Of a stretch of 34,540 nt of DNA, positions 6,001-12,000 are shown one piece after another (position 1 is the stretch's first letter; every line of letters begins with the position of its first letter). Where the stretch lies: contig JBCAXK010000012.1 of the NCBI GenBank assembly GCA_038534095.1, forward strand, positions 1-34,540, written 5' to 3'. This DNA comes from Chlamydiota bacterium (GTDB lineage: Bacteria; Chlamydiota; Chlamydiia; Chlamydiales; SM23-39). The position numbers are program-made.

Positions 6001-9000
6001 GGAAGAGGCTGTGATGCTGATGGAACTGTCTGATCAACACTTTATGATTTACAAAAGCGAAGAAACACAAAAGTTCATGGTGATTTACCGCCGTGAAAAT
6101 GCAAGTTTTGGTTTGATAGAAATTGAAACAGCAGAAAAAAATTTATGATCCTGTTCGGCACCTTTGGTTAAAGGCTTTACCAGAAGAAATTGTCCGCCAA
6201 AAGCTTTTGTTGGAAATGATCGATCAAGGGTTCCCCAAAAGTCTCATCATCATTGAATCAAGCTTAGAGGCATTTATACCAAAAGGGACAAAAGCGCAAG
6301 ACCGGCGGGTCGATATTTTAGCGCTTTATCAAGAAAACGAAAACCTCCTTCCCTTACTTGTGATTGAGTGTAAAGCCTCCTCTCTTTGTAACAAAAGTGC
6401 CCTTCGCCAGTTGATTGGCTACAACAGCTCCATTGGAGCGCCTTTCATGGGCTTAGCAGGCTCTGAATCCTTTACTTTGTATTGGCAAGAAAAAAGTGGC
6501 CTCAAAACCACCTACTATTTACCCACTTATCAGGAGCTAACCCGCGCATGCAAACACTAAGCTTATTGCAAGAAAAAATCCCACTACTCAAGGACTACAA
6601 ACCCTCTTCACTTGAAGGGAAACAAACAGAAAACTGCAAGAAAATTCTTGAGATCCCTAAAGCAACCATTTGCCTGTGTTACGGCGTTTCTACAAAAGCC
6701 TATTTTCTCGCAACATCCCATTTGAGCAATCCCGAAGCGCGGTTGATTTTTCTCGAAGATTCTTTAGACGAGCTGCTCCTATTTTCTCAAGATCCCCAAG
6801 CCAAAATGATCATCGAACATCCACAAGTATCGTTCGAATTTCTTTCTAAACCGTCAGGACTAGAATCTACTTTCCGAGAAATTCTTTGGAAGTACTTGCT
6901 GCAAACAGTCTGCTTTGTCACAACCAAAGATTGCCCTTTTGCCCAAAACCTCTTTGCTTACATGCAAGAAGGGGTCCATTTTACTTTTTCCGATTACAGC
7001 GATTTTGGGAAAAAAGTGTTGGAGAATGTCACAAAAAATCTGACCTCCTTATCAAAAGTGTGTAAATTAGACGATGCAAAAAACTCTTTCAAAAATGTGC
7101 CTGCTTTCATTGTAGGAGGAGGGCCAAGCTTAGACCAAGACGCCCCTATCTTAGATCGCAATAAAGGCATCATTTTTTCTGGAGGCTCTACTTTAGCGAT
7201 TCTCAAACAAAAAGGGATTACTCCCCATTTTGCCGCAACGATCGATAAAGAGGCTCCCCACCACATTTTTTCCAAGGCCGACCTCAAAAATCCCACCTTT
7301 CTTTTTCAGCTGCGCGCCAATCCCCAGAACGTGAAACTGGGGAAAAAGCCCCCCATTTTAGCCCCTTCAAACGGCGGGTATCCCCTAGAAGATTTCATGA
7401 CAGATGGACTCGACCTGTCTTCTTCCTCGAAAGACTATGGCTGGAACGTGTCCACCTTTCTCTGCGCCGTAGCTGCCGAGATGGGATGCTCTCCCATCAT
7501 TTTAGTAGGACAAGACCTATGTCACGATTCGGCGAAGGCTTACGCAGAAAACCTTGCAATCCGAAAAGAACAAATCAATTTTTGCAAAACCAAAGACCGT
7601 CATGGAGAAGAAGTCATCACCCAACGGGACTGGCTGTTTGCTAGAGACTGGTTTTGTCAATTTGCAAGAAAGCATCCTGGAGTTTTGCAAAATGGAACCT
7701 CAAGAGGGCTTGCCTTTGAAGGGATTGCGCGATTTGAAGGGCTAAATCCCTTCCCCAAAAAAATCGATGATCTTGTCGCCTCCATGACAAAAAACCTTCC
7801 CCGTTATCCCGTAGAGGAAAAACCTTTAGGGATTGTTGCTAGCACCGCTCGTTTGAAGAAACTCGTCAAAGAGGGATTAGCCTCACTAGAAGCCCTTTAT
7901 GAAAAGCAGGCTCCTGTCCCACACGAATTCTTCACCCTGATAGAAGAAGAGCTCTTCTACGCAAAACATATTGGCCCGATGTGGGCTCTTTTTGGCACAA
8001 TGATTTTGGAACAAGGGGACAAAAAACCCCACACAAAAGCTTTGCAACAACTGCTCTTTATTGAAGAACTAGCCAATCTTTTACCTCCTGAAGATTGGAA
8101 AGGTTTATAGGGGAAATGCGTATTGCTTGACATGCCTGCTAAAAAAGGAGGAGCGTTTTGAAAATGGTTTTATTGCAATCTGCCAAAAGTGGGTTTTGAT
8201 GAACACCTGTTTTCAGTAAAAAAACACTCTCGTTTTGAGCAGCAACATAAGAGAGGCAGTAAAAAAGTGGACGTTGACAGCCATGAAACAGCGTAAAAAA
8301 ACACTAACAATCCCTGATAAAGGTCCTCGCAAAGATAGGTCCATTGATCATTTACTCAAAAACTGTAAAAAAGTACTGGCTGAGCAGCTTGCCCCTCGCC
8401 CTAATAAATCGAGCTTCCCACAGCTCAATTATTCGGTTGCTAGAAAAGCGATTTGTGATTTCAAAAAAATTCATCCTGATCCATTACTCATTATAGACCT
8501 CCAGTTGACTTATGTTGAATATGGAGCGCAGTGTACTTTAGCCTATGGTGACATCGATGCTACCTTTTATGACAGCATCGAACGTATGTTCCGAAAAACG
8601 TTGAAAAATATGGAACAGCATGGATTGCTAGACCTATTTCAAAATCGGTGTTTGGCAATCCAAAAAAGCACGTGCAACTTGGGGTGGGGCTTTGGAGATG
8701 CTATTCATGAGTTGTGCCAAGAGTATTTCCCGGAACGAACTACATGTACCGCTTACTCCCTATAACCAAGTTGATATGTATACAAGTCTTGTCTATTACC
8801 TAGGTCTCGATTAGCGATACTATGACTACGCTCTAAAGTTACGGCGCGGTGAAACCCATCCCCTTGTAATCACGCTTTTTCTCTCTTTTTTCGAGAAAAA
8901 AATTTTCTGATCATCTACGTTGAAGTTTTACCCAGTTAGGGATATTCAGGAGAAACTGTGGACCAAAGCGTCTTCGTCCATAACCGGATACTTTTGGAAA

Positions 9001-12000
9001 AAAAATGCCCAGAGCTCTCATTTTTTCTCGAAAAACGGGGAAAGTACTCCTCCTCATGTTTGCAGGAAGAGACTACTTCTTTAGTGGAGGCTTTGGAAGC
9101 CTCTTCGGTGGTATACGCTTCTGGATTGATCCATCCCCGCTGTTTTCCTGAGCTACAACGCTTCTTAGAGAAGAAAACCCTGATCTTTTGTTTGCGTGAT
9201 CCTGGTCATCTGCTCCCCTTCTTAATGGTCAAAGAGGCCTCGTTTTTTCTAGAACATCCCCGAGTATTCATCACGCCTATCGATGCTCATTTTTATCAAA
9301 CATTTAGTGAAAAATTTCCAGTAGAGCAGCTAGGAATCGTCCATCTAGCGAAAGACCCTAAAGAAGAGCAAGAGCTTTTTGCCACTACCTTGCGCCGCAT
9401 GACCACCTACGCCCACTTGCTGCAGACCGATCGCCTTTATGGACATATCCCCTTTCAAAATTTCTGGGAAAACCTCATCCATATTCCCCGCTCAAAAGCG
9501 ATTCATACACAAAAGGGATTCTTCAAAGAGATCCCTGCCGTGATTTGTGGCGCCGGGTCTTCTCTGGAAGAGGCGTATCCCTCTTTGCGATCGCTTCGGG
9601 AAAAAGCGCTACTTGTAGCGGGAGGCTCTTCGATTGCCGCTCTTTCTTACGCCAACATCGAGCCTCATCTAGGAATTTTTGTTGATCCAAACGAAGAAGA
9701 GTATGATCGCCTAAAAAAAAACCGGTTCTTATCTCTCCCCACCTTGTACACTCCCCGCCTATTTCCCAAGTGTTTTTCCTTTTTACAAGGAGAACTAGGC
9801 TATCTCCTGTCGAGCATGGGGCTAGGAGCCTTTGACTGGCTAGAAAGCACTCTGAACACTTCGGGGCAGGTGATCGGAGAAGAGCTCACAAAAGATAGCC
9901 TCTCTGTGACTCTTCTTGCTGCAGCTGCTTGCGCATTTTTAGGATGTAGCCCAATTATTTTGGTCGGGGTGGACCTCGCTTATACGCAAAAAAAGCGATA
10001 CGCGAAAGGCGTTCTACAAAAAACAGAAAACGTTCTACCAAAGAGCAGAGCTTTGTATGAGGCCACATCGGTTACAGGGGAAAAGATTTGGACAACAGAG
10101 ACCTGGCTCATGGAAAAACGGGCTTTTGAACATTTACAGAAAAAAACAGAAAGCGTGTTCATAAATGCCTCCAAGGGGGTATCCATGCAGGAGATCAAAT
10201 CGGTGGATCTATCGTCTCTTCCTTTAAAACCGCAGCCTATCGATAGAAAAGTACAAGAACTCTTCAAAAAGGCGCTCCCCATGGGCACAAAAGATCAAGT
10301 GGATGCCTTCAAAACATTGGTCAAAAAGAGCCTGCTTTCTTGCCATGCCCACACAAAAATTCTCGCTTCAAACCGCTCTTTCGCCCATAAAGCTTTGGCG
10401 GAAATCGCGTTAGAAGAAGAGGCGGCTTACCGCTACCTCTTTTATGATAGTAAAGAGGTGTTAGCTCGCAAGTGGCCGCGCGCCTCAGAAGAGGAGCTGT
10501 GGAGAGCTTTCTCCCATCTCATTGAAAAGTACTTAGCAGTCACAGGCAGGGCTTAAAAACTGGAGCATCATCCCCTTTTTGCGCCATTCTTTCTTGATAT
10601 CCCAAACAGGAAAAACCATTTTCTCTTTACACTTATCTACTACGTCGTGAACACTTTTAGGAAAACATTTTTATGGAGGAAAATGGCAAATTGCATAAAC
10701 AATTCAGGCTATAGAAAGACAGATTTTTTCTCTGTAAGTGGAACCGAGGGAAAAGAAGACAGGAAAGAAGTTCGTTTGTAGATTAAAGAGGAAGAAACCG
10801 CTCAAATTGCCCAGAACAATCTACCAGCTCTCATACAACAATCGACTGGGCGGACAAGCTGTCCCTGGATATCGTCACTATGCAACTGCCGCCCTCTAAA
10901 AGCCTGCCTAAACTTTGTTCTTCCAGAAATGATCATGGATATCCTATTCCCAAGGAAGCACCTTTCTCCTAAGCGGCACTTTATGCGCCTCTGCAAAGGA
11001 GATTCTGCCAAAAAAATCAACGCATTTTGGTCCGAATTACAGTCTATATTCAAAAAGCACCACATGCCGCTCACAGATGAGAACTATCTCGACTTCCGCT
11101 CAGAGTTTTGTAGTCAAGACTCTACCTACCCAAATCACATTCAACCTAAGGATTTAACGCGCACCATCATGTGGGGATACAATAATACCCAAGATGATCC
11201 CCTACTTTACATCACAATTTTGGTGAAAAAACAAGAAAAAGGAACTCCCACTTCTAAAACATACGGAGTCTTAACACTATTCCAAAGTAGCCCAAATTTC
11301 TGTCATTTCCGATTTACAGGTACAGCGCCTTTTGCGTTAAGGGTGGCACCTACATTATCTGCAGAAACCATCAAAGAGAACTTAAGACCGATCTTTGCAG
11401 ATGGTTATCAAGAAACGAGAGCAGTGAGATGCCCGAAAAGCGATCAACATTCTAATGGCTCACGTCAAGCGACCTATTCCTTTCAATACGTGCCAGAAAT
11501 GCCAGAAACGCTCAGGCAACCGGCTGAAGAAAAGAAAAAAATGCAATAACCATCATTTGATGGCGCAGTAAGCTTTTCAAAAAAATTTCTTCTTATAAGG
11601 ATTGTCACAAATCAAGCAACCATTCCTAACGATTCTCTATATCCCAAAAAGGGCTCTTTATGCAATCTAACGACTTGCAAGAACGGGGCAGTTTCTTCTC
11701 CACATAGAGAGGGGCGCCTTATGATTCCTTTAGGAACGGGCCTTAGTCGCTCTTTTTCGGGGATTTCTCTGCAGCTCGCCGATGGTTTGTAAATCTTTGA
11801 TCGTTACAATCCTTTGCACATGCGCCTCAACAAGGCGCTCACAGACGATTTTTTTTGACTGATCGGTTTCTTTTTGCGCGAGAAAAGCCCGATCTACATC
11901 ATTGATATCCAAAAGCTCCACCCGATCTGTTTTCAGGTTAGAAGGAATCACTCTAGGAACGCTAACGTCAATCAGAAGGGTTTTTGCTCTCCTTGAAAAT

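Follow-up and report, generated by a model that had tools for sequence, protein, structure and literature searches.

Maf enzymes are cytoplasmic transferases that transfer a CMP-activated ulosonic acid to Ser or Thr of a folded protein. According to the account available for three of these enzymes, the Magnetospirillum magneticum Maf depends critically on E324 and D415, equivalent residues are needed in CbMaf and GkMaf, and the latter two can transfer Kdo from CMP-Kdo (10.1101/2020.06.03.131540). In this work we describe a locus in which a chlamydia without a flagellum keeps an intact pair of this flagellum-glycosylating enzyme. The lack of both a flagellum and a sialic-acid-like pathway in our profile searches, set against the two intact copies, suggests that another target is probably modified.

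The locus lies in a window of 34,540 nucleotides, the whole stretch of DNA that was analysed, from the metagenome-assembled genome of an uncultured marine chlamydia (1.6 Mb, 87 contigs, 96.6% complete). A first-pass annotation had described a paralogous pair of PF01973 genes here, and both open reading frames and their Pfam matches were confirmed. The features discussed below are:

5507..6148, + strand: HPF, long-form ribosome hibernation promoting factor (PF02482, E 3.5e-20; PF16321, E 9.1e-14)
6123..6560, + strand: HSDR_N_2 small protein with a PD-(D/E)xK fold (PF13588, E 9.4e-12)
6548..8110, + strand: Maf1, 520 aa, putative glycosyltransferase with an MptE-like central domain (PF01973, E 6e-32)
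8235..8765, + strand: DUF6155 gene (PF19652, E 7.5e-9)
8958..10556, + strand: Maf2, 532-aa paralog of Maf1 (PF01973, E 3.4e-27)
18587..19393, + strand: KdsA, Kdo-8-phosphate synthase (PF00793, E 4.1e-65; sole match in the genome)

HPF is the first gene of a co-directional run, with all five locus ORFs on the + strand. It shares 26 nt with HSDR_N_2, whose end in turn overlaps the start of Maf1 (at the ATG) by 13 nt; the Maf1 ORF itself opens at a TTG at 6482 (542 aa), the 520 aa being counted from the ATG. KdsA is inside the window but 8 kb downstream of the Maf pair and outside the operon. A genome-wide profile search found exactly two PF01973 genes.

Sequence and predicted fold place both genes in the Maf family as full-length Maf-type proteins. 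Maf1 and Maf2 match PF01973 with 111.2 and 95.7 bits against a cut-off of 34.6, and they are 27% identical to each other over 406 residues (E 8e-24). The Maf N-terminal domain of Pfam, PF20157, was not detected on the window proteins by the Pfam search, and the NCBIfam PseD model reaches only about 32 bits against its cut-off of 670. The AF2 models have a pLDDT of 91.7 and pTM of 0.88 for Maf1 (39 alignment rows) and a pLDDT of 92.9 and pTM of 0.90 for Maf2 (40 alignment rows). For both models the first-ranked PDB match in Foldseek is 5mu5 (Maf1: E 2.9e-20 over 534 columns, TMq 0.54; Maf2: E 7.8e-20), and for Maf1 VIA-align places 474 residues of it across model positions 1-520, covering all three domains, at Z 26.1. 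The full-length Maf fold proposed by the first-pass annotation is thus upheld. The Maf2 sequence profile also retrieves 5mu5, at E 2.5e-9.

Judged by their sequences, the chlamydial Maf-like proteins form three groups, Maf1, Maf2 and clade C, which are new here. In a FastTree phylogeny rooted on 13 outside sequences, which are joined at support 54, the window Maf1 falls within a 42-member Maf1 clade and the window Maf2 within a 37-member Maf2 clade, each at support 99; support along the clade C backbone is weak. All 10 Pfam-positive Mafs of the flagellated chlamydiae (n=5) fall in clade C, and one of these genomes has the order HPF-x-HSDR_N_2-x-FliM-x-Maf-MORN_2. Clade C Mafs are often located at the HPF-HSDR_N_2 locus and have ahead of them a small ORF whose C-terminal motif is conserved; no counterpart of this was found in the source genome. 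A strong NeuB is present in 23 of the 26 genomes with clade C loci versus 0/24 with Maf1/Maf2 loci, but these counts are lineage-bound and kin are not independent, and the pattern could have arisen from a single event or a few.

PF01973 is widespread in chlamydiae: 242 of the 300 genomes sampled across the phylum have it, close to the 443 of 559 reported by the first-pass annotation, as do 46/46 genomes of the window's own family; 11 of the 46 other genomes in that family have one match only. That annotation had described a chlamydia without flagellin or nonulosonate synthesis. For the source lineage this holds. Profile searches of the source genome (96.6% complete) found no Flagellin_N, NeuB or Epimerase_2 and a single partial DegT match of 19.8 bits. 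It does not extend to the phylum, where a strong NeuB is found in 77/300 and a flagellin above the cut-off in 6/300 sampled genomes.

The two acidic residues critical in the Magnetospirillum enzyme are conserved. E324 and D415 of 5MU5 align to D233 and D323 in Maf1 and to D243 and D339 in Maf2. At the first position D occurs in 42/42 Maf1, 36/36 Maf2, 58/59 clade C and 11/13 outside sequences, with E in the remaining two; at the second it occurs in 40/42 Maf1 (E in two), 36/36 Maf2, 58/59 clade C and 13/13 outside sequences. In the C-terminal helical domain, S432 is kept in 38/42 Maf1, 35/36 Maf2 and 53/59 clade C sequences, and E468 in 34/42, 31/36 and 50/59 respectively. Conservation of H227 and R256 holds among chlamydiae and does not extend to the outside sequences. 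One central-domain position splits the groups: 48/59 clade C sequences have R or K there, 40/42 Maf1 sequences have Q, and 34/36 Maf2 sequences have S, A or G. For a Ser reported to be needed in CbMaf and GkMaf, no equivalent could be placed in the chlamydial alignment. Among the conserved residues checked in the window pair, the sole exception is the GxGPS motif of Maf2, which reads GAGSS.

The gene order HPF-HSDR_N_2-Maf-Maf had been proposed as specific to chlamydiae. HPF-HSDR_N_2-Maf does recur, in 54 of 74 related loci, but the four genes are not one functional unit. In the Maf-less genomes that we checked, HSDR_N_2 adjoins RecO in 5/5 and HPF is adjacent in 4/5. Since the pairing persists without Maf, it represents synteny and not a Maf module: throughout the phylum it is HPF, and not Maf, that HSDR_N_2 accompanies. 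The HSDR_N_2 residues E45, D64 and E82-C83-K84 are invariant in 55/55 sequences.

Maf1 and Maf2 normally enclose a gene for a MORN_2 protein, an association that is new here. The middle ORF between Maf1 and Maf2 in relatives is a MORN_2 repeat protein in 31 of 32 cases, and Maf-MORN_2 fusions exist in some lineages. In the window this slot is filled by the DUF6155 gene, a patchy accessory gene outside the conserved module. DUF6155 is found in 7 of 150 genomes from four families, at 55-64% identity; it never stands beside a Maf in the fetched loci of five other genomes, and it was not found in the 74 Maf loci. The GC content at 8001-9000 is 0.405 versus 0.459 and 0.470 in the adjoining kilobases.

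We tentatively favour the explanation that Maf1 and Maf2 are glycosyltransferases from a flagellar era that have been retained for an acceptor other than flagellin, with CMP-Kdo as the donor. Chlamydiae would have inherited a Maf and its MORN_2 partner from flagellated ancestors that made nonulosonic acids, and the few flagellated chlamydiae still carry Maf-MORN_2 at the HPF-HSDR_N_2 locus, with fliM immediately ahead in one genome. In the large lineage where flagella and NeuB were lost, the genes may have diverged into a Maf1-MORN_2-Maf2 cassette and then been retained. Maf1 and Maf2 would be two anciently diverged family members, probably still active, and in the source genome the MORN_2 gene would have been swapped for an unrelated accessory gene. 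The acceptor would be a non-flagellin cytoplasmic protein that is normally recruited via the MORN_2 protein. For a type III secretion substrate or surface protein as acceptor, the part of the first-pass interpretation that concerns the target, no support was found; its reading of the two genes as Maf-type proteins and of CMP-Kdo as the only such sugar with synthesis genes is supported.

The donor is suggested by elimination. CMP-Kdo is the only CMP-ulosonate for which synthesis genes were found in the source genome, as had been claimed: KdsA is accompanied by one CTP_transf_3 protein of the KdsB type, the sole CMP-sugar synthetase found. Because this is the only matching pathway and published Mafs accept CMP-Kdo, it would be the substrate here. 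CTP_transf_3 is found in 293/300 genomes of the phylum, and KdsA and KdsB are also present in a Maf-less family, so they do not depend on Maf.

It is possible, but unlikely, that active Maf-type transferases add Kdo-type residues to a glycan such as the LPS core, a surface glycolipid or a polysaccharide, and not to protein. The central domain resembles the lipooligosaccharide sialyltransferases Cst-I and CstII (Z 9.3-9.8; CstII at Z 9.8 in VIA-align and, for the Maf2 model, at E 9.8e-4 in Foldseek), and the window also has KdsA, an LptB-like ATPase and a GT9 gene at a distance of 8-12 kb downstream of the pair. However, the full three-domain Maf architecture is retained, including the C-terminal helical domain with its conserved S432 and E468, the MORN_2 partner is a soluble protein rather than a membrane or lipid-carrier enzyme, and no LPS genes are adjacent in the Pfam-annotated loci.

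We consider it equally unlikely that the proteins are not glycosyltransferases but MptE-like or thiamin-pyrophosphokinase-like nucleotide binders, for instance a pyrophosphokinase, a SteA-like regulator or a pseudoenzyme scaffold. PF01973 takes its name from the archaeal HPPK MptE, whose structure 8sd5 is the second Foldseek match for Maf1 (Z 15.5 in VIA-align); SteA and thiamin pyrophosphokinases reach Z 8-10, and GxGPS and the acidic residues may be superfamily-wide nucleotide- or metal-binding features. All of these structures cover the central domain only (about 136-400; for 8sd5 residues 143-385, in line with the first-pass annotation), whereas 5mu5 covers 1-520. Neither a FolK-type HPPK nor a dihydropteroate synthase (Pterin_bind) was found in the 96.6% complete genome, and therefore no user was found for an HPPK product. 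The Mafs of flagellated, NeuB-positive chlamydiae moreover belong to the same radiation.

More doubtful is that the pair in this particular genome is a relic in decay, its function largely or wholly lost. The Maf module may be eroding in the source genus, given that the locus of the closest relative has Maf1 only, another genome of the genus has just one PF01973 match, MORN_2 is lost here with a sporadic accessory gene in its place, the end branch of the window Maf2 is long (1.63 versus a median of 0.59) and its motif reads GAGSS. Decay would also agree with the gaps of 124 and 192 nt around the DUF6155 gene, where relatives show tight overlaps. Both ORFs are nevertheless intact and full-length with confident predicted folds, and the P to S change is the only departure from the conserved residues.

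Least probable is a donor that the cell does not make, such as host-imported CMP-sialic acid, another CMP-nonulosonate or a different nucleotide sugar: chlamydiae import host nucleotides, the genome has a KdsB-type synthetase and no NeuB in our searches, and published Mafs are reported to be promiscuous for CMP-Neu5Ac, but no transporter was linked to the Maf locus, and the conserved positions at which Maf1 and Maf2 depart from the NeuB-associated clade C agree better with a change of donor than with the same donor taken from outside.

Among the known systems, the archaeal 6-hydroxymethylpterin diphosphokinase MptE (8SD5) is a PF01973 member of about 220 aa with a single domain that acts in the pterin pathway, while the window proteins carry two extra domains in a genome without a detected dihydropteroate synthase. 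CstII and Cst-I (CAZy GT42) and ST8SiaIII (GT29) have the central CMP-sugar-binding fold in common with the window pair (Z 8.1-9.8; Foldseek prob 0.9-1.0), but they are single-domain enzymes with oligosaccharide acceptors and lack the Maf N- and C-terminal domains. Clade C, from flagellated chlamydiae and Parachlamydiaceae- and Waddliaceae-like genomes, belongs to the same phylum-specific radiation and shares the MORN_2 association, and differs in its co-occurrence with NeuB, greater length, frequent MORN_2 fusion and arrays of 2-3 genes. The Maf of M. magneticum AMB-1 (5MU5), a flagellin nonulosonic-acid O-glycosyltransferase, shares the three-domain architecture, the central PF01973 domain, the GxGPS motif and the acidic residues, at an identity of 12-14% only. 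In contrast to the setting of 5MU5, the source genome has no detected flagellin, nonulosonate pathway or flagellar locus, and the chlamydial type forms a conserved pair of paralogs that is usually accompanied by a MORN_2 protein. CbMaf of Clostridium botulinum and GkMaf of Geobacillus kaustophilus are of the same family, and their reported transfer of Kdo and Neu5Ac to Ser/Thr is the activity that we propose here. Kdo transfer by these two enzymes is described as promiscuous, a side activity seen with flagellin in E. coli, whereas for the window pair it would be the native reaction, with an acceptor other than flagellin.

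Two paralogous genes, Maf1 (g00588) and Maf2 (g00590), encode putative Maf-type glycosyltransferases and lie in a run of five co-directional genes:

5507-6148, + strand: long-form HPF (PF02482 and PF16321)
6123-6560, + strand: HSDR_N_2 (PF13588, E 9.4e-12)
6548-8110, + strand: Maf1, 520 aa from ATG (PF01973, E 6e-32)
8235-8765, + strand: DUF6155 (PF19652, E 7.5e-9)
8958-10556, + strand: Maf2, 532 aa (PF01973, E 3.4e-27)

HPF and HSDR_N_2 overlap by 26 nt, and HSDR_N_2 and Maf1, read from its ATG, by 13 nt. The two Maf proteins are 27% identical across 406 residues (E 8e-24), and the genome (1.6 Mb, 87 contigs, 96.6% complete) holds no other PF01973 gene. 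A promoter and terminator scan of 4900-11800 gave no usable operon boundary, the 7 promoter hits being no excess over shuffled sequence (mean 8.0). Downstream of Maf2, at a distance of 372 nt, is an orphan 206-aa ORF (10929-11549, +) which matches no Pfam or NCBIfam model and for which phmmer found no counterpart in related loci. A 291-aa ORF between RecO and YchJ (4125-5000, -) has no Pfam match above threshold.

The first-pass annotation had claimed a full-length Maf fold, and the structural comparison bears this out for both proteins. Orthologs were gathered from 74 related loci, found with a 12-row alignment, and gave alignments of 39 rows for Maf1 and 40 rows for Maf2. The resulting AlphaFold2 models (pLDDT 91.7 and pTM 0.88 for Maf1, pLDDT 92.9 and pTM 0.90 for Maf2) both have 5mu5, the Maf flagellin glycosyltransferase of Magnetospirillum magneticum AMB-1, as their first-ranked Foldseek match in the PDB, with E 2.9e-20 over 534 columns and E 7.8e-20 over 643 columns, respectively. 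VIA-align puts the Maf1 model (1-520) onto residues 13-648 of the chain with 474 residues aligned and a Z of 26.1. All three domains are aligned, so the models predict the 5MU5 architecture of an N-terminal Rossmann-like, a central and a C-terminal helical domain. PF01973 scores 111.2 bits on Maf1 and 95.7 bits on Maf2 against a Pfam gathering cut-off of 34.6, and the Maf2 profile picks up the 5mu5 sequence at E 2.5e-9. The Pfam Maf N-terminal domain PF20157 has no match on either protein at E <= 0.01, although the predicted fold of this region aligns to 5mu5 in VIA-align; among the matches of our homolog search it occurs in only five of the weakest (P0050, P0051, P0056, P0059 and P0062). The PseD model (NCBIfam NF050051) gives 31.8 and 32.4 bits, far below its cut-off of 670. 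Given this score and the missing PF20157, Maf1 and Maf2 are, as judged from sequence, distant members of the Maf family and not equivalogs of any named Maf. For a complex of Maf1 (27-520) with Maf2 (27-532), the prediction scores were 0.01 and 0.00 (mark 0.32), a result which counts neither for nor against an interaction.

Several other structures match only the central domain, at residues about 136-402 in VIA-align: the archaeal MptE kinase 8sd5 (Z 15.5), SteA (Z 10.3), thiamin pyrophosphokinases (Z 8-9) and the sialyltransferases CstII, Cst-I, ST8SiaIII and ST6GalNAc2 (Z 8-10). The 6-hydroxymethylpterin diphosphokinase MptE is a poor match as a whole, since that enzyme is a single domain of about 220 aa, whereas Maf1 (520 aa) and Maf2 (532 aa) each have two domains more. 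Neither a FolK-type HPPK nor a dihydropteroate synthase (FolP, Pterin_bind) was found in the genome, so that an MptE-like pterin kinase would have no obvious role here.

The two acidic residues on which Maf activity is reported to depend have acidic equivalents in both proteins. In the part of the source available to us, E324 and D415 are described as essential in the M. magneticum Maf (10.1101/2020.06.03.131540, citing Sulzenbacher et al. 2018), and their equivalents plus one Ser as required in the Mafs of C. botulinum (CbMaf) and G. kaustophilus (GkMaf) (10.1101/2020.06.03.131540). A HMMER profile alignment equates E324 with Maf2 D243 and D415 with Maf2 D339; the Maf1 counterparts in the 150-sequence alignment are D233 and D323.

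Residues at the two acidic positions, by group (outside: non-chlamydial Maf-like sequences)
D233/D243 (5mu5 E324): Maf1 D 42/42; Maf2 D 36/36; other chlamydial D 58/59; outside D 11/13, E 2/13
D323/D339 (5mu5 D415): Maf1 D 40/42, E 2/42; Maf2 D 36/36; other chlamydial D 58/59; outside D 13/13

The Ser lies in the Maf_flag10 domain and is given, in the same excerpted source, as S334 in CbMaf and S356 in GkMaf (10.1101/2020.06.03.131540). Its candidate columns, whose placement is uncertain, hold T in 36/36 Maf2, S, G or A in Maf1 and A in 11/13 outside sequences. Other positions are characteristic of the chlamydial proteins. H227 is found in 35/42 Maf1, 36/36 Maf2 and 55/59 other chlamydial sequences (outside, D in 8 and H in 4), and R256 in 35/42, 36/36 and 59/59, with no R among the listed outside residues. 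S432 and E468 of the C-terminal domain are conserved in chlamydiae and not outside. Two residues before R256, in the central domain, the groups differ from each other: R or K in 48/59 of the third chlamydial group (clade C, see below), Q in 40/42 Maf1 and S, A or G in 34/36 Maf2.

The gene order HPF - HSDR_N_2 - Maf, which had been put forward as specific to chlamydiae, does recur, 54/74 related loci having a Maf gene immediately preceded by HPF and HSDR_N_2, but the supposed tie of HSDR_N_2 to Maf does not survive. HSDR_N_2 is next to RecO in 5/5 Maf-less genomes checked, with HPF adjacent in 4/5, and thus keeps company with HPF rather than Maf. It follows HPF across the phylum, Maf-less genomes included (loci L079-L083), and its PD-(D/E)xK signature (E45, D64, E82-C83-K84, plus Q96 and Y100) is invariant in 55/55 sequences. 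HPF and HSDR_N_2 may form an HPF-linked nuclease pair, which to our knowledge nobody has described.

The Maf genes have a conserved companion in MORN_2. The gap between Maf1 and Maf2 holds a + strand ORF of 79-288 aa in 32/37 loci, the Maf genes overlapping in the other 5, and 31 of these 32 ORFs match MORN_2 at E <= 0.01 (28 above the gathering cut-off). MORN_2 is moreover fused to the C-terminus of Mafs of about 744-1020 aa in loci recorded as Parachlamydiaceae or Chlamydiae/Chlamydiales, where two or three fused genes stand in a row, with unrelated genes on either side. Its position between the two Mafs and these fusions together make MORN_2 a conserved Maf partner. At the window's locus it is absent and no credible remnant was found: the best tblastn match of 32 MORN proteins to 8000-9100 (E 0.003 over 42 aa) was dismissed as noise, and the translation of that segment holds no MORN-like motif. 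The only MORN_2 protein in the genome, of 426 aa (contig C2, about 52.2-53.5 kb; L092:1024-2304), was considered as the partner and set aside as a different kind of protein, being a predicted lipoprotein whose N-terminal hydrophobic stretch ends in Cys.

The gap is instead occupied by DUF6155, in our view an accessory gene of sporadic occurrence that in this lineage has taken the place of MORN_2. None of the 74 Maf loci was found to carry it, and it is present in 7/150 sampled genomes spread over four families, some copies being broken by stop codons. Its neighbours at five other genomes' loci (L095-L099) are RhuM, GrpB-GNAT, NUDIX, DUF488 and MazG-like genes, never Maf. DUF6155 homologs are 52-74% identical, with one outlier at 35%, compared with only 25-35% for the Maf orthologs, and the GC of its segment is 0.405 against 0.46-0.47 in the flanking kilobases. 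Well conserved yet patchy in its distribution, DUF6155 behaves like a mobile or island gene.

The claim that this genome has neither flagellin nor NeuB is confirmed by profile searches, which found no Flagellin_N, NeuB or Epimerase_2, and no flagellin or nonulosonate genes lie in the window either. DegT gave a single partial match of 19.8 bits. What the genome does have is one KdsB-type CTP_transf_3 (E 7.1e-47) and, inside the window, KdsA (18587-19393), followed by an LptB-like ATPase and further on by a GT9 gene. These belong to an LPS-related run at 18587-23107, 8-12 kb downstream of the Maf pair, in the order KdsA, 175-aa ORF, LptB-like ABC ATPase, NDK (opposite strand) and GT9 heptosyltransferase-family gene. 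A 905-aa ORF without Pfam match (15811-18528, -) adjoins KdsA.

Chlamydiae are a phylum of obligate intracellular bacteria that are almost never flagellated. We sampled 300 of their genomes, counting NeuB as strong at E <= 1e-60 and flagellin when above cut-off.

Genomes with a match, phylum sample
PF01973: 242/300
NeuB at E <= 1e-60: 77/300
CTP_transf_3: 293/300
Flagellin above cut-off: 6/300

In the window's own family PF01973 is found in 46/46 genomes, mostly in two copies, and none of the 77 strong-NeuB genomes belongs to it (6 weak partial NeuB matches occur there). PF01973 is missing or nearly so from three families (f4, 0/29; f3, 1/18; f10, 0/5). The f4 genomes, which we take to be Chlamydiaceae, range from 1.0 to 1.4 Mb (1.0-1.3 Mb in most cases) and are mostly assembled into one or two contigs. 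NeuB-less families have one copy of CTP_transf_3 and NeuB-positive families usually two, and 5 of the 6 flagellin-positive genomes also carry PF01973 and strong NeuB. The full-length NeuB of the 77 genomes, usually accompanied by a second CTP_transf_3, implies that many environmental chlamydiae without flagella have a complete CMP-nonulosonate pathway, and our full-text literature search found no paper on such a chlamydial pathway. Many chlamydial NeuB ORFs are about 500-600 aa long, a length which suggests fusions.

A FastTree phylogeny of 150 Maf-like proteins, with the 13 non-chlamydial members as root, separates three chlamydial groups: Maf1 (42 members) and Maf2 (37 members), both with support 99, and clade C (56 members), which has loose support. 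This last group contains the MORN_2 fusions and several HPF-linked genes from loci recorded as Waddliaceae, Parachlamydiaceae or Chlamydiia, as well as 10/10 Pfam-positive Mafs retrieved from five flagellated chlamydiae. One of these flagellated genomes, G103, has the order HPF-x-HSDR_N_2-x-FliM-x-Maf-MORN_2 (L084; G103:C20, 14155-18496) with a flagellin gene 10 kb upstream, and in three more (G001, G288 and G144) Maf-MORN_2 also comes after HPF-HSDR_N_2. We then compared Maf type with NeuB at E <= 1e-40 in 50 of the 73 locus genomes, picked by locus type before NeuB was inspected. Strong NeuB is found in 23/26 genomes with clade C loci and in 0/24 with Maf1/Maf2 loci, a clean partition, but one among kin that are not independent, so that one or a few events may account for it.

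Directly upstream of clade-C Maf genes is a small ORF of 142-159 aa without Pfam match (L084:15216-15692, L087:2906-3382, L018:2335-2766, L048:3144-3584, L059:5332-5790 and L050:5363-5788), with a conserved Lys-rich C-terminus, RKxKFxxLGGxxxWxPM. A profile of the six had no match in the window's genome at E <= 1. These ORFs do not appear to be diverged HSDR_N_2, an HMM of 55 HSDR_N_2 sequences giving no match at E <= 10, and could be chaperone or acceptor candidates for the NeuB-linked Mafs.

Maf is kept in about four fifths of the sampled chlamydiae and flagellin was found in only 2%, so the acceptor in most of the phylum cannot be flagellin. The type III secretion substrate suggested by the first-pass annotation is unsupported, and we found no evidence identifying any acceptor. 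Its guess of CMP-Kdo as donor is favoured by elimination: the Maf1/Maf2 type sits in a branch without NeuB, in which the CMP-Kdo pathway is the only CMP-ulosonate pathway found, and two published Mafs, CbMaf and GkMaf, transfer Kdo according to the excerpted source (10.1101/2020.06.03.131540). The Maf1/Maf2 pair would descend from the Maf-MORN_2 system of flagellated, nonulosonate-making ancestors. The boldest reading, which we rate as unlikely, is a native cytoplasmic protein glycosylation with Ser/Thr-O-Kdo (or another ulosonate) in most non-flagellated environmental chlamydiae, performed by flagellum-derived Maf1 and Maf2 that were redirected, with MORN_2 as adaptor, to a non-flagellin protein after flagella and nonulosonate synthesis were lost. 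If true, the phylum would have its first protein glycosylation system, and a Kdo-protein linkage would be seen in nature for the first time.

Several observations point to possible erosion of the system in the window's genus. At the locus of the closest relative (59% identity) Maf1 is present without Maf2, only one PF01973 match is found in a same-genus genome, MORN_2 is lost from the window's locus, and the window's Maf2 branch is long (1.63 against a median of 0.59).

A Maf-type enzyme is nearly universal in an almost flagellum-free phylum, one branch of which keeps a diverged pair without the usual sugar synthesis. If active, the enzymes would carry out an unrecognized modification of chlamydial proteins or glycans, possibly the addition of Kdo to protein, and would show clearly how an accessory enzyme of the flagellum finds new use in nature once the flagellum is lost. 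Mafs serve glyco-engineering, and the NeuB split offers a direct handle on the residues of Maf donor specificity. Full-text literature, with subscription journals outside its coverage, yielded no paper that deals, for chlamydiae, with Maf-like proteins, with nonulosonic or pseudaminic acids, or with a link between MORN proteins and glycosyltransferases. The transferases of Tannerella forsythia and of the Bacillus subtilis crust were considered as non-flagellar Maf-like enzymes and dropped, not being called Maf-like in the excerpts of their papers. In the portions of the literature covered, the only role described for Maf enzymes is the glycosylation of flagellin with nonulosonic acids. The association with flagellin and nonulosonate genes that goes with this family is absent here, but it is seen for the clade-C genes of other chlamydiae.
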